Source: Chiloscyllium plagiosum (lineage: Eukaryota). Taken from it: a stretch of 63,527 bases of DNA. Of this stretch, positions 2,590-54,344 are shown one piece after another. The position numbers and the translations under genes are program-made. The notes beneath the pieces were generated by a model. The model was not told where the DNA came from and did no database searches. It was given only the letters and a program-made list of their open reading frames with translations. The stretch lies in contig NC_057722.1 in NCBI RefSeq assembly GCF_004010195.1, positions 55,834,436-55,897,962 on the forward strand. The letters are read 5' to 3'. How positions within the stretch are numbered: the first letter of the stretch is position 1; each line of letters opens with the position of its first letter.

Positions 2590-3900
2590 TCAATTGACCT
2601 GTCTTTTTAAATATTCTTGCATGGTAAGTGGGTGTCACTGATACAGCCAACATTTATCTTCCAGCCGAAGTTGTCCTTGGAAGATTGTTATGAGTTGCCT
2701 TCTTGAACCACTTGCATCCAGTTGCTGAACGTATACTCACTATAATGTTGGTAACAGGTCCCAGAATTTTGACCTAGTGACATTGGATTTCATTATTTGT
2801 TAAGCAGAATCAGGGAGATCTTGCAGGTGTTAGTGATCTCATGTGTTTGCTGCCCAATCTTTTGAGAGAATAGTGTTCAGATATTTGGAAGATGATGTCT
2901 GAGAACCTTATTGAATTTGTCAGTGCAGCTTGTGTACACTGCTGCTGCTGTGTGTACTAATACTGTGGAGGATGTGAATGTGATTCCAATTAACAGGACT
3001 ACTTTGTTCTGGAATGAAGTCAAGCTTCTTGAGTTTTATTGAAGTTGTACTCAAAGAAAGTGAGGACTGCAGATGCTAGAGATCAGAGTTGAGAGTGTGG
3101 TGCAGGTCAGGCAGCATCCGAGGGGCAGGAGACTCGACGTTTTTGGACATGCCTGATGAAGGGCTTATGCCCAAAACCTAGATTTTACTGCTCCTCGGAT
3201 GCTGCCTGACCTGCTGTGCTTTTCCAGCACGATACTCTCGACTCTGAAGTTGTACTCATACAAGCAAGTGGGGAGTATTCTGTCACATGCCTGACTGCGA
3301 GCCTTGTACATGGTGAACTGTTTTTGGACAGTCACATGTGTTAATCACAGCAGGATCCCTATACTCTGGCCTACTTTTGTAGCCACAATATTTATATGGC
3401 AAGTCCAGTTCACTTTCTGGTCAATAGTAACCCCAGGATGTTGATAGTAATGAATTCAGCAATCGTAATGCCATTGAATGGCATAGGGCAATGGTTCTCT
3501 TTTGTTAGAAATGGTCATTGCCTGGCACTTACGTGGTTAAAATGTTACTTGCGACTTGAAACTTGTATATTGTCCACATCTTGCTGCATTATCTGAAGTC
3601 ACAAATGGCGCTGAACATTGCACAATCAACTGCAAACATCCCTGTTTCTGGTCTTTTAGTAGAGTTAAGGTCATTGCTGAAAATCGTTGGGTACATGACC
3701 TTACCCAGTGGAATTCTTGCAGAGTTGTTCTGGAGCGAAAATGACTGACCTCCGACAACCATAGCTATCTTCCTTTATGCTAGGTATTACTCCTATGATT
3801 CCTATTTTCTGTGGTTTTGCAAGGACTTCTTGATATCATAATTGGTCAAATGTGGCCTTGATGTCAAGGAATTCTCACCACTTGGATTGACTCTTCGAAG
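2590..3900 (-). mobile_element. Old, degraded CR1-clade LINE fragment
   Basis: Resembles the better preserved minus-strand LINE at 33950-35240 (e.g. TGACTGACCTCCGACAACC, GTGGCCTTGATGTCAAGG); no intact ORF. Confidence 0.5.
3054..3244. mobile_element. Palindromic Penelope-derived short element, family A
   Basis: Inverted arms (CAGGTCAGGCAGCATCCG.../...CGGATGCTGCCTGACCTG), decayed CTGATGAAGGGCTTATGCCC core, flanked by 14-bp direct repeat TGAAGTTGTACTCA (3040-3053 / 3245-3258). Confidence 0.8.
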
Positions 3901-4456: not shown

Positions 4457-4602
4457 TGATGTGGAGGTGCCAGTGTTGGACTAGGGTGGACAAAGTTACT
4501 CAATCACACAACACCAGATTATAGTTCAACAGATTCATTTGGAAGTACTAATGCTTCCAAATAAACCTTTTGGACTATAACTTGGTGTTGTGTGATCTTT
4601 AA
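4457..4602. mobile_element. Palindromic short element, family B (centre deleted), inserted in a minus-strand CR1 ORF1 fragment
   Basis: Arms ATCACACAACACCAGATTATAGT.../...ACTATAACTTGGTGTTGTGTGAT. Flanking near-identical 12-mers ATCAGTATTCCA / ATCAGAATTCCA. Confidence 0.7.
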
Positions 4603-6614: not shown

Positions 6615-6897
6615 CGTAGAATCCCTACAGTGTGGAAACAAGTCCTTCGGCCCATGAAGTCCAAACCGACCCTCTGCAGAGTAACCCACCCAGATCCATT
6701 CCCCTACATTTAACCCCTGACAAATGCAGAAGAAGGGGTTCCTGAAGAAGGGTTCATGCCCAAAACGTTGATTCTCCTGCTCCTTGGATGCTGCCTGACC
6801 TGCTGCACTTTTCCAGCAACACACTTTCAGCCCTGACAAATGCACCCAACCTACACATCCCTGAACACTGTGGACAATTTAGCACTGTGCTGCCCTA
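6615..6897 (-). mobile_element. HE1/V-SINE fragment interrupted by a single-arm family A element (6729-6830)
   Basis: SINE 3' part is split by CCTGAAGAAGGGTTCATGCCCAAAACG...; 14-bp TSD CCCTGACAAATGCA at 6715-6728 / 6831-6844. Confidence 0.75.
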
Positions 6898-7410: not shown

Positions 7411-9056
7411 CTAAATCTTTGACTTTGTGTGCACTTTGAAAATGTAAAGACTCAGCTGGTTCAATCCATCTTCAGAAAGAAAAGAAGAAATATCAGGTGG
7501 ATCTTCCATAGTTAAATGAGGGAAGAACGATGCAACAGTTTTCCAATGAAAGCCACAGCTTTTGATATCATCTTGAACAGTGCCAGGTGCAATAATATAA
7601 ATATTTATTTCCTGATTATTCCCATTGTGCTTGGACAAGCACTTTGTCAAGTGCATTGAGAAATTGTCGTGCAATCCATTCACTGTGTTATTGAGTATAG
7701 ACACATCAGACCCTCCCAAGTCAATGATTCTGATACACTCTTGGTCTGATTTGATGTTCAAGAGATATCTAGGAGGCATGTAGGTGTGATAAAATATCAA
7801 ATCATGCTCAGACTGGTTAGCTATGGGATCTTTTGAATGCAAAACATTTTCTAAATAGGACAAACAAGGAATTAAGCCACCCTGGTGCAGACAGCCAAAA
7901 AGTACAGAACATAAAATGTTAAACACAACAATTACAGCTTTCCCCCTCAATATCTCATAATTTAAAACACTATGTATAACAATTGGTATAATGAGTGGAG
8001 TAAGAAACCGTGCCTCCTGATGACTGAACAAGGACAGAATGATTAGAGGAACAAAATAAACCAAAATTAAATACCTAGTAATTGGAGGGGGAGCAGGAAA
8101 CTGCATTCGTAATCTCTTATCAAACTGCTGTTTCTTTGGGTCATGACACCTACCTGTGCCAACAGACTTCTGAGTTATAATTCTGATAACAGATACAAAA
8201 GCTGACAAGTGAAGAGCACCAAACATTGTAAAACCATTAACAGTCAGATGTGTAAACCAGGGATGCCTCCCATGTACAGAAAGGTTGTCTGGATCCAAGT
8301 TATACAAAATGAAATTAAGTGGAGTTAAAACTAGGTTTTTACTTAGATTAATGATATGTTTGTGTATAGAATATCTATCTTCCATAAACCAATCAAATTC
8401 AGAAACCAATAAATTAAAATATAGTGTATCAATAATAATGAAAATGAAACTGGTTACAATTACAGGTGAAAAAATGCTAAATGATGTTTTCAGTATTGTT
8501 CTTAAGTTGAATTGAAACTTTTCTTTCTGATCATGAGAAAGCCACAAGATCATTGGCATTAAAGCGTAACTAATGAATGTGGGCCTATTAAAAAATCCAG
8601 AGACCAAAACAACCCCAATAAGATATTTATTGTTCGTTCTTTCCTCCTCCTTAGGATGTATTGCCACACTTGTTTGCTGTACGTCCATAGCCACAAACAG
8701 CAGCAGTAATGCAAATAGAACTCCTTCTATAACATTTGAAAATGTCCTTGTGTAAAAAACCAACATCACATGTGACCCACTCAGCAGTATTAAAGAATGC
8801 CAAGGGTCTGCTCCCCAGAGACAGGCTAAATGGTATATAGAGTAGTCCAATATAAAGGATAGGCATGTCAGGTATAATCTGGGAAAAATCAACAAACTGT
8901 AGCTGTTTAGGATACTGCCAAATAATCCAGAATTGTGTAAAGTTTTCAGGACAATGAAGGAAAAGCCAGTTGTGGCCATTGGGAAAAGGATTGATCTGCT
9001 GGGATAGCTGGTATTGAATTCCCAAGAACGAAAGATCTTCAAGTTCAAAATGTCAC
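7411..9056 (-). CDS. PIGZ: GPI mannosyltransferase 4 (PIGZ/SMP3, GT22 family), copy A, large last coding exon
   Basis: Acceptor TTCTTCACAG at 9057, phase 1, reading GDILNLKIFRSWEF...TRTFSN...FFNRPTF...HQEARF...HQGG...YMPP...FFPHL to TAG at 7411. With the exon at 18499-18616 this gives an uninterrupted 587-aa multi-pass protein. Confidence 0.93.
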
Positions 9057-11600
9057 CTGTGAAGAAAAGATAAATGTTTTTGAAATAAAATACATTTCAT
9101 AAGGAGGATGGTGGCACTGTCCTAAACTGGGTACAGGGGAACCCCAACAAAGCTGTATCCTCCCTTTCTTGTAACAGGCTGCTCCTGTTTTGAGGTATTT
9201 TAGGTGCTGGAGGTGAGTTCCTCGAATCCCAGGAGCAGCAATTCCTGTTTTATATGATGTTGCATTGTTTTGAAACTTTGGAGGAAAAAAAATGTCAAAA
9301 CAATGGGACCTTTAAAAGGAAGAGGACAGACAAAGGCAGTACATGGTCAGGTCAGTGCAGGAGAGAGAAAGGAAGAAACCCACACTGCTAACTGACACAG
9401 CAGTGAACCTATGCAGTTACTGCTTTTGCTGTTGAATTAATGTATTGCTGGACATCGGAATGCATCTAGGAAAATTAACAAACAGTGAAATTTACAACTG
9501 ATCTTGGAGGAACCTGTTTGGGAGAGGTCACAGCACGGAAACAGGACAAGTGAATAGTTTTAAGTATAGCCTTGCTATGAGTCTACAACAGTGAGTAGAG
9601 TGAGTCTTTCTTGATTATCTGTTTTATTGAGATATGTCTCTTGATTAAACTTAAAAATATAAGCCATAATTATTAAGTTAGCCTGGAACAGTGTTTTGTA
9701 GTGGAATAAGAAGGTGCAATTTTCTAGGTCTGTAGATTGGAAGAAGCACAAATGGCCCCGAGTAAAATGACACGCTCTTCTTGTTGGATCTGGGAGCTTA
9801 GGGAGGTTTACATGTTACTGGGGATTATATCTGCAATAAATGCCTTTGGTTGCGAATCCTATCAGATCTAATGGATCGGTTGGAGCGACAGTTAGAGGCA
9901 ATGAAGAATTTACAAGAGCAAGAGGGTGTGATGGATGGGACGCAGTTATAGGAAGGAAGGAAAGCCACAGATACAGTCACATAGATGGGTTAGCTCCAGG
10001 AAAGGTAAGAGAGATAGGCAGGCAGTGCAGGAGTCTTCTGTGGCTATCCCCATTTCAAACAAGCATGCTGTTTTGGAAAACGTAGGATTCTCAGGGGAAT
10101 GTAGCATGAACAGCCAAGTTTCTGGTATTAAGACAGGTTCTAATGCAATGAGGGGTACATCAGGTTTCAGGAGATCAATTGTGTTAGGGGAATCTCTAAT
10201 CTGAGGCACAGACAGACGTTTTTGTGGCCAGCAGTGAAAAATCAGAATGGTATGTTGCCTCCCTGGTGCTAGTATCAAGAATGTCTCAGAGAGGGTGCAG
10301 AATGTTCTCAAGGGGGAGAGGGACCAGCAGAAGGTCATTGTACACACTGAAACCGACAACATTGGAAGGGAAAAAGATGACATTCTGAAGGCAGAATATA
10401 GAGAGTTAGGCAGGAATTTAAAATGGAGGTCCTCAAGCATAGTAATATCTGGATTATTCCCAGTGCTACAAGCTAGTGAGAGTAGGAAAAGGAGGATAGA
10501 GCAGATGAATGCATGGTTGAGGAGCTGGTGAATGGGAGGATTCACATTTTTGGATCATTGGAATCTCTTCTGGGGTAGAAGTACCTGTGCAAGAAGGACA
10601 GATTGCACCTGAATTAGAAGGGACTAATATAGTGGCAAGGAGATTTGCGAGAGCTGCTCAGGAGGATTTAGACTAGTAAGATGGGGGGGTGGTGGGACCC
10701 AGGGAGAAAGTGAGGAAAGAGATCAGTCTGAGACTGACTATTGAGAAAAGAAGCAAGTCAAACAGTCAGGGCAAGCAGAGGCAAAGTGGAGAAGAAAGTA
10801 GGACTGGTAAATTAAATTGCATTTATTTAAATGCAGGGGGCCTAACAGGGAAGGCAGATGAACTTAGGACATGGTTAGGAACATGGGACTGGGATATCAT
10901 AGCAATTACAGAAACGTGGCTCAGGGATGGACAGGACTGGCAGCTTAATGTTCCAGAATACAACTGCTACAGGAAGGACAGAAAGGAAGGCAAGAGAGGA
11001 GGGGGAGTGGCATTTTTGATAAGGGATAGCATTACAACTGTACTGAGGGAGGACACTCTCGGAAATCCATCCAAGGAGGTTATTTGGGTGGAACTGAGAA
11101 ATAAGAAAGGAATGATCACTTTTACTGGGATTATTTTAATGACCCCCTAATAGTGGGAAATTGAAAAACAACTTTGTAAGGAGATCTCAGTTATCTGTAC
11201 TGATAATAGGGTGGTTATGGTAGAGGGTTTTAACTTTCCAAATATAGACTGGGACTACCATAGTGTTAAGGTTTTAGATGGAGAGGAATTTGTTAAAGCA
11301 TGTACAAGAGAATTTTCTGATTCAGTATGTGGATGTACCTACCAGAGAAGGTGCAAAACTTGACCTACTCTTGGAAAATAAGGCAGAGCAGGAGACTGAG
11401 GTGTCAGTGAGGGAGCAGTTTGGGGCCAGCAATCATAATTCTATTGGTTTTAAAATAGTGATGGAAAAGGATAGACCAATTCTAAAAGTTGAAGTTCTAA
11501 ACTGGAGGAAGGATCATTTTGATGGTATTAGGCAAGAACTTTCAAAAGCTGTATGGGGGCAGATGTTCGCAGGTAAAGGGACGGCTTGGAAAACGGGAAG

Positions 11601-11822
11601 AAAGTGAGGTCTGCAGATGCTGGAGATCAAAGTTGAAACTTTATTGCTGGAACAGCACAGCAGGTCAGGCAGCATCCAGGGAACAGGAGATTCGACGTTT
11701 CGGGCACAGGCCCTTCTTCAGGAATCATTCCTGAAGAAGGGCCTGTGCCCGAAACGTCGAATCTCCTGTTCCCTGGATGCTGCCTGACCTGCTGTGCTGT
11801 TCCAGCAATAAAGTTTCAACTT
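11601..11822. mobile_element. Young perfect-palindrome family A element inserted in CR1 ORF2
   Basis: 11630-11725 is the exact reverse complement of 11727-11822 (96-bp arms, 1-nt spacer); 16-bp TSD CTTGGAAAACGGGAAG at 11585-11600 / 11820-11835. Confidence 0.92.
11727..11762 (+). ncRNA. Minimal type I hammerhead ribozyme motif (mirror copy on - strand at 11690-11725)
   Basis: AUUC-CUGAAGA-A-GGGC(CUGU)GCCC-GAAAC-GUC|GAAU: conserved core boxes, 4-bp stem II, stem I AUUC/GAAU, loop-less palindromic ACGU stem III. Activity not tested. Confidence 0.7.
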
Positions 11823-12111
11823 GGAAAACGGGAAGCCTTCTGAAATGAGATAACAAGAGTCCAGAGAAAGTATATTCTTGTTAGGGTGAAAGGGAAGACT
11901 GGTAATATAGGGAATGCTGGATTACAAGAGAAATTAAAGGTTTGGTTAAGAAAAAGAAAGAACCATATGTCAGGTATAAACAGAAGATCGAGTGAATCCT
12001 TAGAAGAGTATAAAGGCAGTAGGAGTATACTTAAGAAGGAAATCAGGAAGGCAAAAAGGGGACATGAAATAGGGTTAAGGATAATTGAAAGGGTTTTTAC
12101 AAATACATTAT

Positions 12112-12428
12112 GGGCGGCACGGTGGCACAGTGGTTAGCACTGCTGCCTCACAGTGCCAGAGACCCGGGTTCAATTCCCGCCTCAGGCGACTGAGTGTGTG
12201 GAGTTTGCACGTTCTCCCCGTGTCTGCGTGGGTTTCCTCCGGGTGCTCCGGTTTCCTCCCACAGTCCAAAGATGTGCAGGTCAGGTGAATTGGCCATGCT
12301 AAATTGCCTGTAGTGTTAGGTAAGGGGTAAATGTAGGGGTATGGGTGGGTTGCGCTTCGGCGGGTCGGTGTGGACTTGTTGGGCCGAAGGGCCTGTTTCC
12401 ACACTGTAAGTAATCTAATCTAATCTAA
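12112..12428 (+). mobile_element. Full-length HE1/V-SINE
   Basis: tRNA-like head with A/B boxes (GGTGGCACAGTGG...GGTTCAATTCC), V-domain GTGTGGAGTTTGCACGTTCTCCCCGTGTCTGCGTGGGTTTCC, (TAATC)n tail. Confidence 0.92.
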
Positions 12429-12944
12429 TTAAGGACAAAAGGGTAACTAAGGAAAGAATAGGGTCCCTCAAAGATCAGCAAGGCGGCCTTTGTATGGAGC
12501 CTCAGAAGATGGGGGAGATACGAAACAAGTATTTTGCATCAGTGTTTACTGTGGAAAAAGACATGGAAGATATAGAATGTAGGGAAATAGATTGTGGCAT
12601 CTTGAAAAATGTCCATATTACAGAGGAGTAGGTTCTCGATGTCTTGGAACACATAAAAGTGGATAAATCCCCAGGACCTGATCAGGTGTACCCCAGAACT
12701 CTGTGGGAAGCTAGGCAAGTGATTGCTGGGCCCCTGGCTGAGATATTTGTATCATCAATAGTCACAGATGAGGTGCTAGAAGACTGGAGGTTGGCTAACA
12801 TGGTCCCATTATTTAGGAAAGGTGTAAGGAAGAGTCAAGGAACTGTGGACCGGTGAGCCTGACATCGGTGGTAGGCAAGTTGTTAGGAAGAATCCTGAGG
12901 GAGAGGATTTACATGTATTTGGAAAGGCAAGGACTGATTAGGGA

Positions 12945-13026
12945 TAGATTAGAGTGGTGCTGGAAAAGCACAGCAGGTCAGGCAGCATCCGAGGACGTTT
13001 TGGGCAAAAGCCCTTCATCAGGAATC
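12945..13026 (-). mobile_element. Single-arm family A fragment in CR1
   Basis: GTGCTGGAAAAGCACAGCAGGTCAGGCAGCATCCG...GGGCAAAAGCCCTTCATCAGGAAT, which reads CCTGATGAAGGGCTTTTGCCC on the minus strand. Confidence 0.7.
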
Positions 13027-15059
13027 TAGTCAACATGGCTTTGTGCATGGGAAATCATGTCTCACGAACTTGATTGAGTTTTTTGAAGAAGTAACAAAGA
13101 GGATTGATGAGGGCAGAGAAGTGGACATGATCTGTATGGACTTCAGTAAGGTGTTCGTCAAGGTTCCCCATGGGAGACTGGTTAGCAAGATTAGAGCTCA
13201 TGGATTATACGGAGAATGAGCCATTTGAATACAGAACTGACTGGAACGTAGAAGATGGAGGCCTGTGACCAGTGGAGTGCCACAAGGATCGATGATCGGT
13301 CCACTACTTTTCATCATTTAAATAAATGATTTGGGTGTAAGCATAAGAGGTATAGTTATTAAGTTTGCAGATTACATCAAAATTGGAGGTGGACAGCGAA
13401 GAAAGTTACCTCAGATTACAATGGGATCTTGATCAGATGGGCCAATGGGCTGAGGAGTGGCAGATGGAATTTAATTTAGATAACTGGGAGGTACTGCATT
13501 TTGAGAAAGCAAATCTTAGCAAGAGACCTTGGAGTGCAGGTTCATGGTTCCTTGAAAGTAGAGTCGCAAGTAGATAAGAAAGTGAAGAAGGCATTTGGTA
13601 TGCTTTCCTTTGTTGGTCAGAGTATTGAGTACAGGAGTTGGGATGTCATGTTGCGGCTGTACATGACATTGGTTAGGCCACTTTTGGAATATTGCATGCA
13701 ATTCTGGTCTCCTTTCTATTGGAAGGATGTTGTGAAACTTGAAAGGGTTCAGAAAAGATTTACAAGGATATTGCCAGGGTTGGAGGATTTGAACTATCAG
13801 GAGAGGTTGAATAGGTTGGGGCTGTTTTCCCTGGAGTGTTGGAGGCTGAGGGGTGACCTTATAGAGGTTTATAAAATCATGAGGGACATGGATAGGATAA
13901 ATAGACAAAGTCCCCCTGGGGTGGGGGAGTCCAGAACTAGAGGGCATAGGTCTAGGGTGAGAGGGAAAAGATATAAAAGAGACCTAAGGGGCAACTTTTT
14001 CATGCAGAGGGCAGTACATGTATGGAATGAGCTGCAATAGGAAGTGCTGGAGGCTAGTACAATTGCAACATTTAAATGGCATCTGGATGCATGTTTGAAT
14101 AGGAGGGGTTTGGAGGGATGGGGCCGGGTGCTGGCAAGTGGGACTAGATTAGGTTGGGATATCTGGTTGGCATGGATGAATTGGACCGAAGGATCTGTTT
14201 CTGTGCTGTACATCTCTATTATTTGATGACTTCTTTACCCTATTGAATAAAATATTCACACTGATTGTCTTCCTTCCACCCTTCCCAACCAGTTGTATTA
14301 TCGTGGTAAAGTTGGAATGATGTTCTTCAGTGGCTATTGACCATTTAAGCATCTCAATGAGCCTAAGGGCAGGGGGGCTGTCTGATGCCTCAGCTACCTT
14401 TGGTAAAATGGAGGACAGAGTGGGAGTGTTTTGAGTAATATGTGCCTAATGGCTGCCACAGATTGCACACAAAGATGTTTATAGCAGAGGAAAAATTTGC
14501 ATGACTATAATAAGCAAATCAGTACAGAAATATTTCTCCAAACAGTTGCCTTTTCATGAAAACAAACAGAAATGGATGCAATATCATATGCAGATACAAG
14601 TAACACAAGTTACCCAATATACATAATCATAAAGAAAATCATCAGTCAAAACTGTGCATTAATTCTAGCCAGTTCCACTTCTAGTTTTACTATATCTTTT
14701 ACATCCAAATTCTTTGAATCATGCCATTCTTCTAATGGTACAATGTTTGTCTTTTTGTTGGCTGTACCTCTGGTATTGCTCATTCCCACGTTCTAAGTCT
14801 TGGGAGATCCATTGCCGTGGTAAGTGTTATTACCATGGTAACTGTTGTTGGTGAACAGTGGACATCTAGGACTGATGTTTGTTTCATATTCTGTGCAGGT
14901 GGTAAGATCACTTATTCCTGATTCAAGGAATGGGTTCTCAAATTGAATGTCGGTGCCTGCAGTCCAATGTTCATGCATACAATTGAGGTGACAATTGCAC
15001 AACAGAGATTCCAAGTTGCCATGTCGGTAGACTTTTGTTGTGAGTGCAATCATTTGTAC

Positions 15060-18000
15060 TCTAGTTATCCAGTGCTGAGCCCTGGTAATGACTGGAGAGT
15101 TTTATCAAGGTAAAAGTGATTTTTGTCACTCACACCTGTTATTATTTCTGGCTTCCACTGTTTTTTCACTTTTGGAAAAGTAGTTTGGGAGCAGTCTGAC
15201 ATTGGTCTTTGCTCTTTGGACTGGACTATTTTACATACCTGAAGTAGCTGCAGTTCTCTTTGAATGATGATTTATTGTTACTTGTAACCTACAATGAACA
15301 ACACAGTAAAATACAGTGAAAAGTTTCAACTGGCGCCACAGACTGTCACCTTTGGAATATGTTCTGCCTCCCTTGCCAGTGCTGCTATCTTGGGAGGTCC
15401 TTTAAGGATTGATTGAATATACTCAATTTCTTTATGGTCCCTTTGACGAGCTTAACTGCTACTTTGGCCTTCCCATTTAACTGGAAATAATATGGAGATC
15501 ATATATGGTGTTGAATTTCCAAATCCTTTTTTGATGCATCTGAATTCTTCACTGGTGAATTGGGGTCATTATTACTTAACATCACTTGCTGTAACAAATG
15601 AAGTGTACTTTCATGCATTCTAAACTTTCACTGGTAGTCATTGACATCAGTTGATCTAACTGCCAGTAGTCAGAATAGTAGTCAATGTTGACAAGATAAT
15701 CTGGTCCTATGAGAGTGAAGAAGTCTGCTGTCATCCTCACCCATGGTCAGTCTGGGATGTCCTGAGTCATAAACAATTCTTTAGCTTGCTTAGCCTGATA
15801 TTCATTACAAGAATTGCACTGGCTGATGTGGCCCCATAGTCTCATAGCTCATATTGTTTGGCCAGTAGAGAATTTATCCTGACTTTTCACACTAGACTCA
15901 ATTCCTTGATGGCTTTATCCTTGTGCTTTAGCATCACTTTTTTTTTTATCTCTTCAGGGATAATAACTTCCTTTGTTTAAGATGCTATCTTGTGTTATCA
16001 CATCATCTCTGTATGCCCATATTCCCCCCTAATTATCAGGTGAGACCTTGATGCGTTCAGGCCGAGCTTACATAACTAATTACTGTCGCACTTGGAGTTG
16101 CATCTTGTGTAGTTTGCTTGATTTGAGCAAGCTGCTTGTTTTTGAGATTTAATGTCTCTCCTGGTTTGATGATGCTTAGAACTTGTTGAGCTGTTGTTTC
16201 TCATTGCATCTGGAGAATATCATATTCCGTCTTTGCATCCTTAACTTTCTTTATATAGGGGCTGCTCTTGACTGCATGCCAGCAATGTCCATTTGTTTCT
16301 CTTGCTTGCATGTCATATCCAGAGGATATCTTTGAAAATGAAGTAACTCTCCTTGCAGACACTTTGGATCAGATAGAAGCAGTTTGAGGAAGATGCTTTT
16401 TAAATTCAAGTTATTGGACTGCACTGTGACTTTGTTTCTCCCAAATGGGCCTGCTCTAAAATGTTCAATCTGAGTATACCACCAAGTAGTTTGCATTAAT
16501 AAAACTTGGTCCAAATGCAACTGATTTATTGTCCTTGCTGCATTAGAATTGCTGCAAATCCTGACCCACAAGCATCAAACTGCAAGATGACTTCATCAGG
16601 GTATAGTATTACCTCAGCACTGGCATTTTAAGTGTAGTGTAGTTTAAGTGTAGTGATTGCTGCTTCTTGTTCTGTACCCCAATACCAATGCAAGTCCTTC
16701 GCAATGAGCTTAAAAACACTGACAGATCAGGCAAGAAATTTTCTATACAGTTCAAATTCATTGCTTTCACATCTTTTGGACCAGGATCCAGCCGAAGTCT
16801 TTTTTTTGTTAGTACATGACCTAAGTACTTGATTTCAGGCATGTTTAGTTGCATAATTTTCTTGTTCAGCATCAGGTTCTGTCTAGCTGTCATACTAGAT
16901 TATGATTGTGTTCAGTGATATGCTCTTTCATTGTGCCTCCACATCCACAAACCGCTAGATCATCCACAATAGCTTTCTCTCTGCGAAGATCATTGAATAT
17001 TTTGTGCTGTTTGCAGTAACACTCTTCTGAAATACTGGAAATGCTAAACAACACGCATAGCCATCTCCTGAATAGTACAGAGGTAGTTAGAAAACTGCTT
17101 TCATCCAGCTTCACTTTCTAGTAACTATCCTTTTGCTTGAGGGTGGTAAAGAATTCTGGCATGGCAAAATTTCTTTAATGGTTGCCATTAGGTAATGAGA
17201 CCTCTTCAAAGCTTTGTAGAGATCCTTTAAAACTGCACATACTCTGTGTTGTCCAATTTTTTTTTTACTGTCACCGTGCTGCTAATTTAAATCTTTGGTA
17301 GTTATGAATTTCATCATTGGTTAATTATTTTCCATATCTTCCAACTTGACTGTTACGATACAGTGGTGAACCCTTCTGTTAATTAAACAAAACACCCAGA
17401 AAAGTTCACCTCGCCTCGTAATCTGTTAAAATATGAGCGACAGAGAACTCCCCAAATTCCACTATTTAAAGAAAATAACATCAATGTAATTCTTTAACTT
17501 TAAAAGTGAACATTAAAAAACAATCATTCGCAACTCTAAGCCCCCTTTCTCTTAACTGCTTATTATATGCCTCCAACTTTATAACAATGTACTGTTCCAA
17601 TAAAACATTTATTAAAATTATATCAACTTAATTTCAAACCATGTAGCGGCTGTCATCTTCGGTGTCTGTCTTCTTCTGGCTGAAGATCTCCCTGGGTCAT
17701 CTTCTTTCATTTTACTGCAAAGATGTTTCATATGGAAAGGTACCTTTGATAGGGAGTAATTTTGATAGAAACTAATTTCTTGGATCTGTGTCGATAACAG
17801 TTGCTCTGTCTGATTTTCAAAATGCCTGCCTTTTTTTCTATCTCCAACATCAGATCATCTCATTGGTTTGATGTTGGAAAAACAATAAATTCAAACTTGA
17901 TTGGGTTTTAGTATCCTTGGGCATAATTTAAACTGATTACTTAAATTTGAATTGTTGTCAGAACAGCAACCAACTCAGGTATCCATTTCACAGCCAAATG

Positions 18001-18330
18001 TTACATATTTTCAATTTTCCAGTACACTCTGAGACTGCTATCTAGTCATCACTGGTGCTTGTCAGTTTTCAGTTCAGAACAGCATTCACTCACTCTTAAA
18101 GGTACAGTACACGCCTTCAACTTCATAACATGACTATCAGTCTAAATGTGAATGTGAGGGTAGCTGCAAGCTTCCTCTGTAGTTGCCATTTTGGTCTTAC
18201 ATACTTATCCACTTCAAGATGATAATCCCCATAAAGACATCCAAGACTCATAAAAACATATTTATAATCCTGTAGGATGTCTTTGGCAGTCAATGGTTTT
18301 AAGGCCTGTGAAATGAAGCAAATAAAATGT
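15060..18330 (-). mobile_element. Degraded Ty3/Gypsy pol remnant (RT-RNaseH-integrase)
   Basis: Minus-strand remnants IVDDLAVCG, EIKYLGHVLT, YTQIE and integrase-like SPYYFQLNGKAKVAVK, in RT-RH-IN order, with many stops and frameshifts. Confidence 0.8.
17351..18130. mobile_element. Solo LTR (780 bp) inserted in the Gypsy remnant
   Basis: Begins TGTTA, ends TAACA, flanked by 4-bp TSD TGAC (17347-17350 / 18131-18134); interrupts the pol reading. Confidence 0.8.
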
Positions 18331-18498
18331 GGCATAGTTCAATTTTGGACTCATTTCAGCTGAGTTAAATGCATTTTGCTTAACACCTACTATATGGAAC
18401 TCCAGATCCTAGTCCTTCCCATTGCACTGAGGTTTGACTTTGTTTATCCTCCTGGATTTGTAGAAAACAGATTTTTTTAAATTATCAGATTTTCTTAC

Positions 18499-18616
18499 CT
18501 GCCATGACCTCAGGTGACTGAAAAAATTCATCAGGATGTATATAGCCAGTTTGTGGAGCCAGGCACCACAGTATCCTGAATAATGCAAGTGCCAACCATA
18601 CTATTGAGAGTGCCAT
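18499..18616 (-). CDS. PIGZ: PIGZ copy A, first coding exon
   Basis: [39 protein letters not shown]+G (118 nt) with the GT22 motif HPDEFFQ; donor GTAAGA at 18498; acceptor TTGCAATTCTAG ending at 18629. Confidence 0.93.
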
Positions 18617-26198: not shown

Positions 26199-26332
26199 CC
26201 CATTCCTGAAGAAGGGCTTATGCCCCAAACGTCGATTCTCCTGTTCCCTGGATGCTGCCTGACCTGCTGCGCTTTTCCAGCAACACATTTTCAGCTCTGA
26301 TCTCCAGCATCTGCAGACCTCACTTTCTCCTC
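26199..26332 (+). mobile_element. Single-arm family A element
   Basis: ATTCCTGAAGAAGGGCTTATGCCCCAAACGTCGATTCTCC...CAGACCTCACTTTCTCC; 10-bp TSD CAATAAGCAA at 26189-26198 / 26333-26342. Confidence 0.85.
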
Positions 26333-27315: not shown

Positions 27316-28666
27316 CAGGTACTTATTACGCTGTAGTTGTGTTCCAGCAAAACCTCGCTTAATAGAAAATTGTTTAATAGGAATAATGGGGCCTACAGGA
27401 AAAGTGGGGTTAGAGACAGACCAGCAAAAGATATCACTCATAACATCACCCAAAAGCCTAACACAGCCTGACTGAAGGTTTAAATCATAATTATTAACAA
27501 AACAAAAGTAAATTTAACACATTATATTGACAAAATATTGTTAATGCAAGGACAGAGGGTCTTCATTATCACCACCTTCGAGTGCAGTTGTAGTTGCAGA
27601 AGTCGATGGCTGTGGTTATCTTCTGACTGTTTCTTGGAGGTTGGTTTAAAAAAGACATCCAGCTTTTGCTGCTTTGCCCTTTTTCTTCTGTCTTGAAGAA
27701 GCTGTTCAGAGGCTGCCAGATCATATCTTATTGAACAAACTGCTATCCTGCTGTGATCTGCATTGTAATTGTTGTCCTCTAAGAGCTGCAACTGCCTCTC
27801 AATTTCCCTCAGGATAGAAGACAAAAGTGGAAAGTTCTCATGGTACTGCACCCTGGACTTCATCTTTTTCATCTCCAGCTTCCACATCCCTCTCAGCGAC
27901 AAGCTGTTGTAGATCAGCTGTAGAGAGGTCTTCACAATTGGACTCAAGCAGCTCTTCAATATCCTCACCTGGATGCTTTTGCTAACATTCTTGTCACTAT
28001 GCCCCTCAATTTTTGCAAAAACAAAGGATAATCTACGAGTAGATTGTGTGATATGCAGGTATAAGAACAAATTAGAAAGACAAATGGAATGTATAAGAGT
28101 AATGCAGTCCTGCATGGATTATACAGGGCATATACAGGAACTAGGAGAAAGTGAGGACTGCAGATGCTGGAGATCAGAGTCGAGAGTATGGTGCTGAAAA
28201 AGCGCAGCAGGTCAGGCAGCATCCAAGGACCATGAGAAATGACATTTCAGGCATAACCCCGTCATCAGGAATCCCAAAACATCGATTCTCCCGCTCCTCG
28301 AATGCTGCCTGACCTGCTGTGCTTTTCCAGCACCACACTCTCAACTTATACAGGAATTATACAAGAATATTCTTGTCTCAGAGGGACAGCAATGAACATT
28401 TGTTAGTTTAATTTTTGAGATGAAGCTGCTCAATGTATAGTATTGTACCTCTCACATGCACGGACATTGATGAATGCACAGAATGGTGCGGAGACTCCAG
28501 TGCTGATGTTGGCAGATCCGCAGTATGAAGTGTGCAAAACGATCATCGCTGGAATTGCGATATTGCAAACAGAGGTAAACATTCTCGGAAATACCATTCC
28601 CAAATTCTTCAGCAATGTTATAAGCAAATCATACTGCCGAAACACATTTTATACGAGAACTACCTG
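27316..28666 (-). mobile_element. Tigger/pogo-like DNA transposon (non-autonomous, C-terminal transposase remnant)
   Basis: Ends CAGGTA.../...TACCTG with TA duplication; removing it restores the CR1 frame QKSS|NYR. Minus ORF contains the Tigger-like tail LLQDRRKRAKQQKLDVFFKP. Confidence 0.75.
28144..28346. mobile_element. Palindromic family A element nested in the Tigger-like element
   Basis: Inverted arms around CATCAGGAATCC; direct repeat TATACAGGAA at 28131-28140 / 28347-28356. Confidence 0.8.
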
Positions 28667-30182: not shown

Positions 30183-30381
30183 TACAAAGTTAAAAATCAC
30201 AAGACACCAGGTTATAGTCCAACAGGTTTATTTGGAGCACTGTTCCTTCGTCAGGTACACAACCACCTGAAGAAGCAGCACTCCGGAAGCTCGTGCTTCC
30301 AAATAAACCTGTTGGACTATAACCTGGTGTCTTGTGATTTTTAATTTTGTACACCCCAGTCCAACACCGGTGTCTCCAAAT
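30183..30381. mobile_element. Palindromic family B element (preceded by a family A arm at about 30064-30143)
   Basis: ACAAAGTTAAAAATCACAAGACACCAGGTTATAGTCCAACAGGTTTATTTGG mirrored by CCAAATAAACCTGTTGGACTATAACCTGGTGTCTTGTGATTTTTAATTTTGT. Confidence 0.85.
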
Positions 30382-30900: not shown

Positions 30901-31000
30901 AGGGCATACATCCGTTCAAACCAAAATACTGCGGGTGCTGTAAATATGAAATAAAAACAAAATTCCAGAGAAATTCAGCGGGTCAGGGATAGCATTTGTG

Positions 31001-31521
31001 GACAAAGTTAAAAATCACACAACATGAGGTTATAGTCCCATAAGTTTATTTGGAAGTACCAGTTTTCAGAGCACTGCTCCTTCATCAGGTAGCTAGTGGA
31101 GCAGGATCATAGGACACATGATTTATAGCAAAAGATCATAGTATCATACAACTGATGCGATATATTGAACAAACCTAAATTGCTACTAAGTCTTTCATCT
31201 TTTAGAATGAGTTGCAGGTTTTGATTCATTAATAACTTCTTCCAAGTTCTGGGATTTAGATAGTAATGAATCAAAACGTGCACCCCATTCTAAAAGATGA
31301 GATTTAACAGTAACCTAGATTTGTTCAATTTATCGCATCAGTTGTATGACACTATGATCTTTTGCTCTAAATTCTGTGTCCTACAATCCTGCTCCACTAG
31401 CTCCCTGCTGAAGAAGCAGTACTCCAAAAGCTTGTACTTCCAAATAAAGCTGCTGGACTATAACCTGGTGTTGTCTGATTTTTAACTTTGTCCACCCCAG
31501 TCCAACACCGGCACCTTTACA
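31001..31521. mobile_element. Long palindromic family B element (~230-bp arms) nested in a family C element (about 30920-31590)
   Basis: Arms about 31001-31233 and 31262-31493 are imperfect reverse complements; TTTGTGGA is repeated at both junctions; minus strand 31062-31088 reads CTGATGAAGGAGCAGTGCTCTGAAAAC. Confidence 0.8.
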
Positions 31522-38057: not shown

Positions 38058-41050
38058 AAGCAGGGAGATATTGAGGAAAGATTTCAATCTGAGACTGGTA
38101 CAATTGAGAACAAAGGCAAGTCAAACAGTCAGGGCAGGCAGGGACAAAACAGAGAACAAGGTAGGACTAATAAATTAAACTGCATTTAGTTCAATGCAAG
38201 TGGCCTAACAGGGAAGGCAGATGGACTCAGGGCATGGTTAGGAACATGGGACTGGGATATCATAGCAATTACAGAACCATGGCTCAGAGATGGACAGGAC
38301 TGGCAGCTTAATGTTCCAGAATACAAATGCCATAGGTAGGACAGAAAGGGAGGTAAGAGAGGAGGAGGAGTGGCATTTTTGAGAAGGGATAGCATTACAG
38401 TTGTACTGAGGGAGGATATTCCAGGAAATACATCCAGGGATGTTATTTGGGTGGAACTGAGAAATAAGGAAGGAATGATCACTCTTATTGGGATTGTATT
38501 ATAGACCCCCTAATAGTCAGAGGGAAATTGAGAAACAAATTTGTAAGGAGATCTCAGTTATCTGTAGGAATAATAGGGTGGTTATGGTAGGGGATTTTAA
38601 CTTTCCAAACGTAGACTGGGACTGCCATAATGATAAGGGTTTAGATGGAGAGGAATTTGTGAAGTGTGTACAAGAAAAGTTTCTGATTCTGTATGTGGAT
38701 GTACCTACTAGAGAAGGCACAAAACTTGACCTACATTTGGGAAATAAAGCCGGGCAGGTGACTGACTTGTCAGTGGGGGAGCACTTTGGGGCCAGTGACC
38801 ATAATTCTATTAGTTTTAAAATAGTGATGGAAATGGATAGACCAGATCTAAACGTTAAAGTTCTAAATTGGAGAAAGGCCAATTTTGATGGTATAAGGCA
38901 AGAGCTTTCAAGGCTGTCTGGGCGCAGATGTTCGCAGGTAAAGGGACGGCTGGAAAATGGGAAGCCTTTAGAAATGAAATAACAAGAGTCCAGAGAAAGT
39001 ATATTCATGTTAGGGTGAAAAGAAAGGCTGTTAAGTATAGGGAATGCTGGATGACTAAAGAAATTGAGGGTTTGCTTAAGAAAAAGAAGGAAGCATAATT
39101 CGGGTATAGACAGGATAGATCAAATGAATCCTTAGAAGAGTATAAAGGCAGTAGGATTATACTTGAGAGAAATCAGGAGGGCAAAAAGGGGACACGAGAT
39201 AGATTTGGCAAATAAAATTAAGGAGAATCTGAAGAGATTTTACAAATACATTAAGGACAAAAGGGTAACTAGGGAGAGAATTGGGCACGTCAAAGATCAG
39301 CAAGCTGGCCTTTGTGTGGAGTGGCAGGAGATGGACAGACAATAAACAAACATTTTGCATCCGTATTTACTGTGGCAAAACACATGGAAGATATAGAATG
39401 TAGGGAGATAGATGGTAACATCTTGAAAAATGTTCATATTACAGAGAGGAAGTGCTGGTTATCTTGAAACGCATAAAAGTGGATAAATCCCCAGGGTCTG
39501 ATCAGGTGTATCCTAAAACTCTGTGGGAAGCTAGAGAAGTGATTGCTGAGCCTCTTACTGAGTTATTTGTATCATCGATAGTCACAGGTGAGGTGCCAGA
39601 AGAGTGGAGGTTGGCTAACGTGGTGCCACAGTTTAAGAAAGGCAGTAAAGACAAGCCAGGGAATTATAGACCGGTGAGCCTGACGTCAGTGGTGGGCAAG
39701 TTGTTGGAGGGAATCCTGGGGGACAGGATATACATGTATTTGGAAAGGCAAGGACTGATTAGAGATAGTCAACATGGCTGTGTGCTTGGGAAATCATGTC
39801 TCACAAACTTGATTTGAGATTTTTGAAGGAGTAACAAAGAGGATTGATGAGGGCAGAGCAGTAGATGTGATCTATATGGACTTCAGTAAGGCGTTTGACA
39901 AGGCTCCTCATGGGAGAATGGTGAGCAAGGTTAGATCTCACGGAATACAGGGAGAACTAGCCATTTACGTACAGAACTGGATGAAAGGTAGAAGACAGAG
40001 GGTGGTGTTGGAGGGTTGTTTTTCAGACTGGAGGCCAGTGACCAGTGGAGTGCCACAAGGATCGGTGCTGGTTCCACGACTTTTCATCATTTATATAAAT
40101 GATTTGGATGTGAGCATAAGAGGTATAGTTAGTAAGTTTGCAGATGACACCAAACTTGGAGATGTAGTGGACAGCGAAGAAGGTTACCTCAGATTACAAT
40201 GGGATCTTGATCAGATGGGCCAATGGGCTAAGAAGTGGCAAATGGAGTTTAATTTAGATAAATGTGAGGTGCTGCATTTTGGGAAAGCAAATCTTAGCAG
40301 GACTTATACACTTAATGGTAAGGTCCTAGGGAGTGTTGTTGAACCTAGAGACCTTGGAGTGCAGGTTCATAGCTCCTTGAAAGTGGAGTCGCAGGTAGAT
40401 AGGAAAGTGAAGAAAGCATTGATATGCTTTCCTTTATTGGTCAGAGTATTGATTACAGGAGTTGGGAGGTCATGTTGCAGCTATACAGGACACTAGTTAG
40501 GCCACTGGTGGAATGTTGCCTGCAGTTCCGGTCTCCTTCCTAACAGAAAGATGTTGTGAAACTTGAAAGGGTTCAGAAAAGATTTCCAAGGATATTGTCA
40601 GGGTTGGAGGATTTGAGCTATAGGGAGAGGTTGAATAGGCTAGGGCTGTTTTCCCTGGAACATCGGCGGCTGAGGGGTGACCTTACAGAGGTTTTTTAAA
40701 TCATGAGGGGCATGGATAGGATAAATAGACAAAGTCTTTTACCTGGGGTGGGGGAGTCCAGAACTAGACGGCATAGGTTTTTGGAGAGAGGGGTTAGATA
40801 TAAAAGAGACCTAAGGCGCAACATTTTCACTCAGAGGTACGTGTACGGAATGAGCTGCCAGAGGAAGTGCTGGAGGCTAGTACAATTGCAACATTTAAAA
40901 GGCATCTGGATATATATGAATAGGAAGGGTTTGGAGGGATATTGGGCAGGTGCTGGCAGGTGGGACTAGATGAGGTTGAGAAATCTGGTCAACGTGGACG
41001 AGTTGGACCGAAGGGTCTGTTTCCATGCTGTACATCTCTATGATGCTATG
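38058..41050 (+). mobile_element. CR1 LINE, essentially complete but disrupted ORF2 plus 3' tail
   Basis: YYRPPNS...VGDFNFP; NYRPVSLTSVVGK; YMDFSKAFD; GVPQGSVL; KFADD; tail CTGTACATCTCTATGA. Confidence 0.92.
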
Positions 41051-46335: not shown

Positions 46336-47969
46336 TTAATGTTCTGGTTGCTTCAACTTTATGTGCACTTTGAAAATGTAAAGACTCAGTTGAGTTAATC
46401 CACCTTCAGAAAGGAGAGAAGAAATATCTGGCGGGTCTTCCATAGTTAAATGAGGGAAGAATGATGCAACAGTTTTCCATTGAAAACCACAATTTTTGAT
46501 ATCATCTTGAACAGTGCCAGGGGCAATCATGTAGATATTTATTTCCTGATTCTTCCCAAAGTGTTTTGAAGCAGAATTGTCAAGTAGCTCATTCACTGTG
46601 TTATTGAGAAAAGACACATCAGACCCTCCTAGGTCAATGATTCTAACAAACTTTTCATCTGATTTGATGTTAAGAAGATACCTAGGAGGCATGTAGGTAT
46701 GGTAAAAAACCAAATTATGCTCAGTCTGGCTAGGCAAAGGATTTTCTGAGTGAAGAACTTTTTCTAAATAAGACAGACAAGGAATTAGTCCACCCTGGTG
46801 CAGACAGCCAAAAAACACTGACCCCAAGAGATTAAATACCACTATTACAACTTTCCAACTCCGCATCTTATATTTTGAAGCACTAAGGATGACAAGTGGC
46901 ACAATGAGTGGACTAATGTAGCGTGGCTCTTGATGACTAAACATTGATAGAATAACAATAGGGATAAAATAAACCAACAGTAAATACTCAGTAATTTGAG
47001 TAGTCATAGAAAGCTTTGCAGGCAACTTATTTTCCAAATTGTCTTTGTGAGAGGTATGGCCACTGGCTTTGCACGCAAATTTGCTAACCATTGTTTTGAC
47101 ACCAGTTGTCACAGCAGATAAGTGGAGGCCGCCAAACAGTAGAAAACTGTTCACAGTCAGATGTGTAAACCAGGGGTGGCTACCATGTGCGATAAGGCTT
47201 TTTTGGTCCAAGTTATATAAAATTAGATTAACAGGGGTTAAAACAAGATGTTGGCTTATGTTGACAAACAGTGTATAAATGTTATTGCCATCTTTCAAAA
47301 ACCAAGCCCTTTCAGATAACAATGAACCAAAATACAATGCATCTGTCACAATGAAAAGAAAACTGGTTGCAATTACAGACGATAGAAGACCAAAGAAACG
47401 CTTCATAATTCGTCTTAAATCAAACTGAAGTATGCCTTTCTGATCACAAAAAAGCCATCGGAACATTGGTATTAGAGCATAACCAATGAATGTGGGCCTG
47501 TTAAAAAAACCAGAGACCAAAACAATCCCAATAAAATGTTTTTTTTTCCCGCTTTCCTTTCTCATAGGATTTGATGCCACACTTGCTTGCTTTATGTCCA
47601 TGGCTACTAGCAGCAGCAGTAATGCAAAAAGTACTGCTTCTATGACATTTGAAAATGTCCGGGTGTAGAAAACTAACACCACATGTGACCCACTCAGTAG
47701 TGTCAATGCATCCCATGGATCTGCTCCCCAGAGACAGGCTAAATGGTATACAGAATAGTCTAGTATAAAAGACACACATGTTAGGTAGCATCTAGGGAAA
47801 ACCAACAAACTGTAACCATTTAGGATTTTATCAAATAGGCCTGAATTGTGTAAAGCTTTAAGTGTTGTGAATGAAAATCCAGAGGTGATCAATGGGAACA
47901 GAATTGATCTGCTGGGGTAGCTGGTATTGAATTCCCAAGTACGGTAAGTTTTGAGATTCAAAATATCAC
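46336..47969 (-). CDS. PIGZ: PIGZ copy B, large last coding exon
   Basis: Acceptor TTCTTTACAG at 47970, phase 1, GDILNLKTYRTWEF...HQEPRY...FFPHL to TAA. With the exon at 50520-50637 this gives an uninterrupted 583-aa protein. Confidence 0.93.
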
Positions 47970-49279
47970 CTGTAAAGAAAAGAAATATATTCAAAATGAG
48001 AAAAGCAAATTACTTTGACAATTATATACATTGTTATAGAAAATTCAGCCACCGAATTAATACCTCTTACCTTTGATAATTTCATCTTAATCTCATCCAA
48101 TTCTTGCTCTCACTATCTCCTCAGATCTTTAGTGGTACTGCATCTCCTCTATTGCTAATGCTGGCTCATTGAAACAAGGCTTTTTCTTTCCTGTGGTAAA
48201 TCCTTCTTTTTCTCTGCCTCATTGATGAGATACAAGAAAATACTAGTTATTTGCATGATGATTGTTCTGTCATCTCTGGACTCCAAGGTAATGGAACCTT
48301 TGTCACTGTTATCAAAACTCATATTCATTGCATACTCGTCACTCTTTTCCTCTAAGTGCCAATTACATCATATTTCTTGTGTTTTCAGTAGAATGAGATT
48401 AAGACTTGCTGCTCCACCTCCTGCTTGAAATCATCCTTTCCAGAACTTAAAATCTGTAGAAATCCTTAACCCTTCAGTCTTCAATTCCTTCTACAGTCTC
48501 TAAGATTTTAAAATATATACTTGGCATCATCTAATTACTTCCTGAATTATCTCATCTTCTTTTCTATTGCTTTTGGTTGTTGTGGAATCCTTCACTGAGG
48601 TTTCACCCTAACAAAGAAAAAATCATATTCCAGCTTGTTTACAAATATCAGAGAATGAAAGCAACAGTCATCTAAAACATTTTAATCAAGAATGCAAAGC
48701 TATTTTACCATACAATTCATGGAGATGGTTACTTACCTTTTTCCCCAGCATTTCCTCTTATCCCACCAAGAAGGTGAAGTCATAAACAGAGCTGACAGGT
48801 GGATATGAAATACACACTAAAAAATAACAGTGCTTTGCTATAGGTTGAATTTGTGGAAGCTTGGATTGCAAAAGGTGAGCAACCACAAAATATAAATTCA
48901 ATATAATTACCTATGCTGACCCTTGCTCCCATTATGCATGTTTTAAGCAACTGCTGGCCACAAAAGGTTATTTTGTATAAACATCATGCCAATATTTTAG
49001 TGAGGCTATATTGGCTTTGCTGATATATTTCATGTTGCATCATGCATTGTTTCTAATTTTCTACAGTGTCAGAATGACTGCCCTCATAAACATATGCCTC
49101 ACTCCGGTTTAAAATATTGTTTGCCTCCAGACTCCTAGATATCAAAACGAAAGCTGAATACCATTGTTCTTTGTGAATTTGTACCATGACTAATTAATGA
49201 ATGGCACCAGTCATTAAAATGTCCACCTGCTTTTGAATATTTCTTATTTAAGAAATTCCCCTTGGCTACAATTCAAATG

Positions 49280-50105
49280 GAATCACATCAGATTCCATGT
49301 GTATGCTGATAACAGGAAGTTCTCATCTCCATTTCTCTTGACCACTCTAATATCTGACTTACCATATTGCTTGTCTGACATTCAATCCTGAATGAATAAA
49401 ATACTGCTGGGTTTAGTCTCTTTCACAATATCTATTAACTCCACCTCATTCCATAGCCAGACTATTCCCACCCTCAGCATCCTATCTGAACTAGAAATGA
49501 GTTTGCAATCGCATGGTCCACTGATCACCAAAACCATCTTCTTCCATCATTGTAACATTGCCAATTTCTGTTCTGCCTAATCTCATCTGCTGAAACCCTC
49601 ATCCATACCTTTAGAATCTCAAGATTTGACCATTACAGTGCTTTCTTAGCTGGCTAACCTCCCTCCATAAATCTGACCTTGTACAAACCTCTGTTGTCCT
49701 TATTCCATTTTGCACAAACATCATTCATCCATCATTGTTTGCTCACTAATCTACACTGGCACCTTGTCCAACAATCCCTTGATTTTAAAATTCTCATCCT
49801 TGTTTGCAAATACTCCCTTCTCTCCCTAATCTCTTGCAGTCGTACAACCTTCCATGCTCTCCTCGCATTCTGGTCTTTTGTGCATCTCCAATTGTAAATC
49901 TTCACCATTGGCAGTTTTCAACTACTTAAGCCTTAAAATTCCATCTCTGCATCTCCTTGTTCTTTTAAGATGCCGCTTAGAACTTAATGTTTTGATTAAA
50001 GTTTTGGTCACTTGTCCTGTTACATCAATGTAGGTCAATATTAACACTGGTAAACGTATTGGAAAAGCTCTGGAATGTTAGAGGCACTATATGAATGTAA
50101 GTTTC
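49280..50105 (+). mobile_element. Old L2-like LINE 3' remnant
   Basis: CTGCTGAAACCCTCATCCAT, CTACACTGGC...TTGATTTTAAAATTCTCATCCTTGTTT and a GGCACTATATGAATGTAAGTT-type end. Confidence 0.6.
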
Positions 50106-50519
50106 TGTTTTTGATGTGGAATAATATTTTATGAAACTGTTATTCAATCAATGCAATGTGATTCTACAGAGTATTAACATTGCTATCACTTTAACAATAA
50201 TGTTATTTTATTATGTTGCATTTTAGCATTTTTGATTTTACATTTCTCCATGAACTTCTGGCAATTAGTATCTCATTTGCTTAATATAGCCAATTAGTTC
50301 TTACGAATTGCAGCTGTGTAGCACACTGCAGCAAAATTATTGCATTTTAACATCAAAATTAGAATTAATTCCAATTTTATGCAGACCTCTGTTAAAACTA
50401 AATCATGTCACCCTCAAAGTTTTGTAGACACAGGAAGTTAATTCATGAGCATGGGATGAAGCAGTTTATTTTAAAAGCAAAGGAAATTATTTGTAGAAAG
50501 TCTTTAAAAGACATTTTAC

Positions 50520-50637
50520 CTGCCATAACCTCTGGAGACTGGAAAAATTCATCAGGATGTATATAGCCTGTTTGTGGTGCTAGGCACCATAGCACCCTGA
50601 CTACTCCAAGTACCAACCACATTAACTTGGAAGCCAT
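50520..50637 (-). CDS. PIGZ: PIGZ copy B, first coding exon
   Basis: [39 protein letters not shown]+G (118 nt, same length and phase as copy A); donor GTAAAA at 50519; acceptor GATGCACAG ending at 50639. Confidence 0.93.
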
Positions 50638-53845: not shown

Positions 53846-54344
53846 ATTTACACTTTCAAGAGAAATTAAGGTGGTTTAGTCATCTGTTTTGTTTTAAAGA
53901 AAACCTACAATTAACCTTGTTTGTTGGTAGTCACTTTTTGGCAAATTATTCTGATCGGGGAGACTCAGTTGGGGGATAGAGCTCTCAAAAGGTCTGGGAA
54001 AAGTAACAGAAACAGGGAAGGTAATAGAAACCGTTAAAGAGTTGAAAATGAGAATTTGAATTTCGGAGTTTGTTTAACTAGGAGCCATCCTCAGTTAAGG
54101 GTGATTCGTGAATGCGGATTTCATTATCTTCATAAAGATAAATACAAGTGAAACATTAAAATTACATACACAAGCTGAAATTGCTGCAGAAACTCACACT
54201 GCTGTGTGAAAACTGACAAATCATTCCGGGAGCAATCCCATTTCAGTGTTTCATGGGCTGTTACATGCACTCAGATCTCCTGAGATCTTGTGCCAGTGTG
54301 TGATTTTATTTTTTTTTATTTTTAAATAAAAACTAACTACTGTG

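Follow-up and report, generated by a model that had tools for sequence, protein, structure and literature searches.

The perfect palindrome centred on position 11726 of the window, the 63,527-nucleotide stretch of Chiloscyllium plagiosum DNA analysed here, is an ordinary example of a known Penelope footprint. The unit consists of two head-to-head ends of a young Penelope-like element (PLE), probably laid down in one twin-priming event. From the anatomy of the insert, its target-site duplication (TSD), the link of its arms to reverse transcriptase (RT) and GIY-YIG coding sequences, the copy numbers and the end statistics, we infer two priming events, a transcript start at +1 and a final end joining.

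Anatomy of the insert and its target site

The features of the locus are collected in Table 1, where positions within the arms are numbered from the A of the hammerhead first stem (+1). As the sequence-only reading of this DNA had it, 11630-11725 and 11727-11822 are perfect reverse complements of each other over 96 bp, where the match stops, and the unit is enclosed by two identical 16-bp TSD copies. The insert itself (11601-11819, 219 bp) carries no ORF and is asymmetric: its left arm of 125 nt exceeds the palindrome by a 29-nt tail, and its right arm measures 93-96 nt, the last 3 nt being common with the TSD. A paralogous LINE fragment elsewhere in the window (38768-39178) runs unbroken through the site and has the 16-mer only once, which is the layout of an empty site and identifies the palindromic unit as a clean insertion with a TSD. 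Judging from the natural upstream sequence, position 11726 most likely belongs to the short arm, whose start would lie one base ahead of that of the long arm. The long arm is identical to the downstream pseudo-LTR (pLTR) of another fetched locus, L139.

Table 1. Features of the palindromic insert and its host locus (positions are those of the window)
Feature	Position	Strand	Basis
Large coding exon, Glyco_transf_22 (E 7e-46); upstream coding exon near 18.5 kb	7411..9056	-	
Host LINE fragment holding the insert, within that intron; AP-endonuclease piece PF03372	10680..14040	+	
Left TSD copy, 16 bp	11585..11600	+	sequence comparison, empty paralog
Long arm: 3' pLTR end of a putatively Neptune-like Penelope element, +1 (11725) to +125 (11601)	11601..11725	-	
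Tail, the long-arm stretch without mirror image	11601..11629	-	tail described in the accessible text of PMC3846280, PMC8557442, PMC11167929
Minimal hammerhead motif, host-gene strand; predicted cut between 11694 and 11693	11690..11725	-	
Central C, natural pLTR base at -1	11726..11726	+	
Short arm, +1 to +93/96; final three bases common with right TSD	11727..11822	+	
Minimal hammerhead motif: stem I 11727-30/11759-62; core 11731-37; bulge 11738; stem II 11739-50; GAAA 11751-54; CG-UC 11755-58; predicted cut after 11758	11727..11762	+	sequence, descriptor
AATAAA, marker of the young subfamily	11807..11812	+	sequence
Right TSD copy	11820..11835	+	sequence comparison

The intronic position first assigned to the insert holds, since coding exons lie on either side of it on the minus strand. 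The host gene, named as PIGZ in the sequence-only reading, belongs to a tandem pair of intact Glyco_transf_22 (PIGZ-like) genes on that strand, 7411-18600 and 46336-50600, with two coding exons each, and the LINE fragment that holds the insert is presumably of CR1 type. Contigs of four sequencing runs were compared with the right junction, and those of three with 11700-12100; the Penelope family is abundant in them and, among the matches listed, none spans the locus junction or an empty site. No RNA run was among the sequencing runs listed as containing the sequence.

Family identity of the arms

A young, protein-free retroposed insert of Penelope origin with an inverted terminal copy had been proposed, and the match of the arms to pLTRs at RT- and GIY-YIG-linked loci supports it. 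Upstream of the arm, other loci have a 3' UTR rich in pyrimidines and, beyond it, a GIY-YIG frame; downstream they run on into the tail and reach an ORF start after about 170 nt. One locus (L146) combines the ORF start, a GIY-YIG domain (PF01541, E 1e-4) and a pLTR that matches the arm at 96% identity, while in L147 and L149 RT matches under the Pfam cut-off (RVT_1, E 9e-5 and 7e-4) lie beside older pLTRs that are 84-90% identical. These layouts identify both arms as the 3' pLTR of a PLE. A parent ORF that codes for RT and, at its C terminus, for a GIY-YIG domain, as in endonuclease-bearing PLEs, is therefore present at the level of the family, through these three loci taken together; no gap-free full-length element was found among the fetched loci, L146 and L147 being interrupted by gaps. 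Other hallmarks of such elements are partial-tandem pLTRs, seen as pLTR-ORF start-pLTR in L112, L127 and L138-L141, an inverted end copy with a one-sided tail (29-31 nt here, about 35 nt across the family, in the 23 of 23 and 46 of 48 pairs described below) and a TSD, of 16 bp in this insert. The L146 translation contains both a CX2-5CxxC linker before the GIY-YIG domain and two cysteines inside it, so that the parent element may be called Neptune-like by cysteine motifs that, in the accessible text of PMC8557442, are given for Neptune and Nematis alike.

A 320-nt mini-element (pLTR, ORF start, 3' UTR, pLTR) occurs in L117, L138, L139, L140 and L144, with a common junction at several loci. Within the window, palindromes of other repeat families, probably other Penelope families, lie at 4503-4596, 30183-30351 and 54200-54740; the second carries a decayed hammerhead with a different stem II, and no TSD was found at the arm ends tried for the first two. 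A large inverted repeat with 196-nt arms (85%) and an inner 52-nt pair occupies 30998-31495.

Abundance of the young subfamily

Exact matches in the genome number 9,154 for a 29-mer with the stem-II loop variant and 18,897 for a 27-mer with AATAAA, and none was found for the reversed-pattern control of either. The CCTGTG loop, GAAT and AATAAA, the last of which lies in the right arm as reported, had been described as variants absent from other copies; they are missing only in the older copies of the window and are subfamily markers genome-wide. Within the first 100 listed AATAAA 27-mer matches, 48 fall in 24 head-to-head pairs, which extrapolates to about 4,500 such pairs in the genome. The exact 35-nt palindrome centre is found at 89 loci, this one included, a spacerless centre at 184, and two full hammerhead starts 0-12 nt apart at 280. 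The fetched loci contain 90 pairs, 77 of them young, with identical arms in 40 of these 77 and unshared differences of 0.8% per base. These counts make a perfect palindrome the usual state of the young subfamily and remove the special standing first given to the locus, which is one of very many and probably inert.

Stem I, of 4 bp, is perfectly paired in the young subfamily (AUUC/GAAU) and contains a U-U mismatch in older subfamilies (AUUC/GAUU). Older palindromic relatives in the window lie at 3057-3247 (16-bp TSD) and 28148-28347 (13-bp TSD), and solo copies at 6739-6829, 12958-13025, 26202-26326, 56114-56189 and 59636-59746. Elsewhere in the genome, one palindromic insertion has become a source element, the junction of its short arm with the host flank having 302 exact matches (L201-L212, e.g. 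G000:C1:1863435; L007, L015, L110, L179, L180). All 12 loci examined have the same layout, the flank being 100% identical over up to at least 1.5 kb, and the copies are variably 5'-truncated, often switching into Penelope ORF sequence.

Arm ends and pairing

The end statistics come from the loci behind the first 100 of the 18,897 listed AATAAA 27-mer matches, that is, 73 loci with 99 arms. At the 3' side, 36 arms end at +94 to +97, 5 lie in between, and 58 reach at least +123, with ends at about +129 to +131 where these could be resolved. Both classes also terminate solo copies, the inner one in 20 of 50 solo-class arms, some of which stem from pairs that have lost the anchor in their second arm. 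At the 5' side, 56 arms end at -3 to +7, in a cluster within TCATTCC at +1, which presumably fits the initiator consensus; 16 end further upstream and 27 downstream, a class inflated by early halts of the ungapped extension at indels. The downstream class includes 6 ends near the predicted cut (+32/33), and with 6 of 99 arms there, hammerhead cleavage was rejected as the main origin of the 5' ends. A cap-derived central base was also discarded, as most spacers match natural upstream bases instead.

All 23 unselected pairs consist of one long and one short arm, against a proportion of 0.48 expected from solo frequencies if the arms were independent (P 5e-8). Leaving out three pairs that were copied from a single source gives 20 of 20. 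From 57 loci selected by junction, 48 pairs were obtained, 46 long-short and two short-short (L073, L194), with no TSD found for either of the latter. With one mismatch allowed, TSDs measure 14-19 bp in 19 of the 23 unselected pairs; in 42 of the 48 selected ones they range from 12 to 19 bp, 16 bp being the mode. Most solo-class arms have shorter TSDs or none. Of 19 simple pairs, 12 have a short arm that extends beyond the long one at the 5' side; sequence lost asymmetrically from the palindrome centre at a later stage could mimic this result. Palindrome centres vary between loci and contain short, templated-looking snippets. In L205, L212 and L206 the arm of the opposite class abuts host-flank or ORF DNA at a distance of 0.25-1 kb from the other end, and the TSDs, of 14-15 bp, are flush; L209, the far arm of which belongs to an older subfamily, is excluded from this set. 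A few point variants are common to both arms in L158, L163 and L184. Both arms of L177 (G000:C1:31161774-31161855) carry an 8-nt deletion that starts at the hammerhead cut site and is found nowhere else in the assembly (2 matches), which may record cleavage and rejoining of one RNA.

The hammerhead motif

The right arm reads AUUC-CUGAAGA-A-GGGC(CUGU)GCCC-GAAA-CG-UC|GAAU, and both the cut position and the presence of the motif on the two strands are as first reported. The core boxes, stem II with its preceding bulge, a palindromic 15.2-16.2 and stem I are all present, in line with a putative minimal type I hammerhead. A minimal-hammerhead descriptor gave 199 distinct matches in 581 kb (the window plus fetched loci, which were chosen for the Penelope family) and none in one block-shuffled control. 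No Rfam hammerhead family matched at E <= 1 in the window or at E <= 5 in L007, L112 and L139, the only Rfam matches being generic hairpins under the gathering score. Single arms fold no better than shuffles (z -0.1 to -0.3), so that folding energy gives the ribozyme no support. Stem II is GGGC/GCCC or GGAGC/GCUCC in different families of the genome, with pairing kept, although the descriptor itself enforced stem II. As a non-circular check, recurrent subfamily variants affect stem I, loop II and N7 and leave the core and stem II untouched, a pattern consistent with selection on the parent element.

The suggestion that the RNA might either fold into a hairpin or cleave itself is not supported, because the hairpin is predicted at -203.7 kcal/mol against -7.7 for the ribozyme fold, about 196 kcal/mol stabler, and because, whichever strand is transcribed, the antisense arm comes before the ribozyme. 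According to the accessible text of PMC4209133, minimal hammerheads are inactive as monomers and weak as dimers; that of PMC11167929 describes the hammerhead of an Anolis element as protein-dependent and dispensable for insertion. Cleavage of the palindrome RNA is unlikely on these folding estimates, and the two hammerheads are predicted to be pLTR passengers, masked by the hairpin in read-through RNA. If the intron is transcribed, hairpin dsRNA would likely form in the pre-mRNA. One single-cell RNA run, sampled at about 2 in 100 reads, yielded 514 reads in both orientations, nearly all from other copies, and these 514 showed no start or end pile-up and no locus-specific editing evidence.

Origin of the inverted ends

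In the twin-priming event proposed here, the element enzyme would cut both DNA strands 16 bases apart and use each cut end to prime a copy of its RNA. One of these copies would begin at an outer start site (about +130), yielding the tail, and the other at an inner site (+94/95); both would extend as far as the 5' end of the RNA, close to +1, after which their 3' ends would be joined by host repair into a palindrome with a centre differing by locus. The accessible text of PMC11167929 reports that the Anolis element cuts and extends both strands in vitro, is predicted to act as a dimer and has two RT start sites bounding the tail. The two 3'-end classes of the shark family, which also end solo copies, match these start sites and favour twin priming. 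Against the transfer stands the fact that the in vitro system is a Poseidon element whereas the shark element appears Neptune-like, and the two short-short pairs count against twin priming itself. No statement of twin priming for Penelope elements was found in the open-access literature; subscription journals and supplements may hold one. In the text available, PMC3846280 explains palindromes of this type by antisense-template self-priming, and PMC8557442 takes the tail for endonuclease resolution and states that the inverted ends with a one-sided tail are unresolved.

Such self-priming corresponds to the snap-back copying favoured by the sequence-only reading, whereby a single tail-primed cDNA would fold near its 3' end and copy itself until the endonuclease or the second target end stopped it at +95. 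Snap-back would likewise yield one long and one short arm and agrees with the identity of the arms at this locus, and the genome-unique L177 deletion in both arms would be expected from it or from arm conversion. We nevertheless consider it unlikely. A fold-back from the long arm cannot make the short arm the longer one at its 5' side, as it is in those 12 pairs of 19 and, at this locus, by a single base; the short-arm end at +95 is also a common solo end; and the far arms of L205, L212 and L206 are joined to unrelated DNA, with flush TSDs. In all three respects twin priming fits better. The shared variants once cited as a sign of snap-back are the subfamily markers described above, and the end statistics oppose a fold-back from the long arm. 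The weaker claim that both arms often come from one template retains some support from L177, the deletion of which points to a shared template or later conversion and is compatible with twin priming only if one altered RNA served both copies.

Perfect palindromes are a known class of assembly artefact, and this assembly is short-read-like, with gaps at repeats, which could suggest that the assembler made the second arm. That origin is hardly credible, since the asymmetric arms end at two family-wide sites, the 16-bp TSD is flush, the empty paralog is contiguous, and the older, diverged relatives in the window repeat the layout with TSDs of their own. Copying of the palindrome as a whole from a palindromic master, as a self-propagating non-autonomous unit of retrozyme or MITE type, would explain the exact centre common to 89 loci and has a parallel in the different palindromic insertion that became the source of 302 copies with its flank. 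Yet some of the same-centre fetched loci carry the extra base on the short arm and others on the long arm, with their own flush TSDs, and centres vary widely across loci. The unit is moreover not tandem, hence no retrozyme as defined in the accessible text of bioRxiv 10.64898/2026.07.22.740005, and its asymmetric arms and 16-bp TSD are unlike a MITE, so that this origin is very improbable. A functional RNA switch in the host intron, acting by dsRNA or self-cleavage, could appeal to the intact motif on both strands and to the spared core and stem II, but that conservation reflects selection on the parent element. The predicted stability of the hairpin, the antisense arm preceding on either strand, the inactivity or protein dependence of monomeric minimal hammerheads in the two papers cited for them, and a copy indistinguishable from hundreds of others make such a function exceedingly doubtful.

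Returning to twin priming, a wider reading, on which our confidence is evenly balanced, extends it to the Penelope inverted-end-plus-tail footprint in general. The footprint would represent programmed twin priming by a dimeric RT-endonuclease, with the tail site on one cut strand and the inner site on the other; both copies would run off the transcript 5' end just before the hammerhead and be joined by repair. The shark stubs would then be its minimal readout, some of them becoming source elements that carry host DNA.

Significance

The importance of the family is modest. Its thousands of young, precisely bounded stubs nevertheless provide statistics that bear on the unresolved origin of the inverted ends and the one-sided tail and point to twin priming, and they delimit a test substrate of 130 nt for use in the in vitro system already established. 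Intronic perfect hairpins of this kind might also give rise to large amounts of dsRNA in the genome.

Comparison with known systems

In L1 twin priming, both cut ends prime reverse transcription and an inversion results inside the TSD; the second primer anneals internally by chance, and sequence is not duplicated. The insertions described here share the two-ended priming within a TSD that is proposed for them, but their two starts are at fixed positions, and the segment that is copied is present twice. MITEs have symmetric terminal inverted repeats, a short fixed TSD and a DNA-transposon parent, whereas asymmetric arms, TSDs of 12-19 bp and a retroelement parent were found here. Non-LTR retrozymes (bioRxiv 10.64898/2026.07.22.740005, accessible text) are likewise protein-free, derived from pLTRs and equipped with a type I hammerhead, but they form head-to-tail tandems of at least two hammerhead units, whereas the arms of this insert are head to head. 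Elsewhere in the family, L112:1939-2508 and L102 contain head-to-tail 224-nt units with a hammerhead in each, a retrozyme-like internal-deletion derivative with 40 exact matches to the unit junction.

The motif shares with the minimal metazoan PLE hammerheads, as presented in the available text of PMC4209133, the CUGANGA and GAAA core, the extra base before stem II, G10.1-C11.1, the palindromic 15.2-16.2 and the absence of loop 3, and opposite-strand pairs were already noted there. The Schistosoma examples in the same text have a stem II of 7-8 bp, in contrast to 4 bp in the present putative hammerhead. Anolis Poseidon in vitro (PMC11167929) resembles the shark family in its two RT start sites bounding the tail, its pLTR hammerhead and the fact that reads never end at the cut site, but its ORF begins inside the hammerhead, compared with about 170 nt after +1 here; both-strand extension is not tied to inverted copies in the main text of that paper. 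The closest description is that of endonuclease-bearing PLE insertions, for which the accessible text of PMC3846280, PMC8557442 and PMC2377424 gives head-to-head inverted pLTRs, a tail of 30-40 bp at one end, a TSD and a pLTR hammerhead, the mechanism of the inverted ends being left open or ascribed to antisense self-priming. An inverted pLTR with a one-sided tail and a TSD is thus the Penelope footprint already described, from which the present insertion differs in lacking an ORF between its ends, the whole unit measuring 219 bp.
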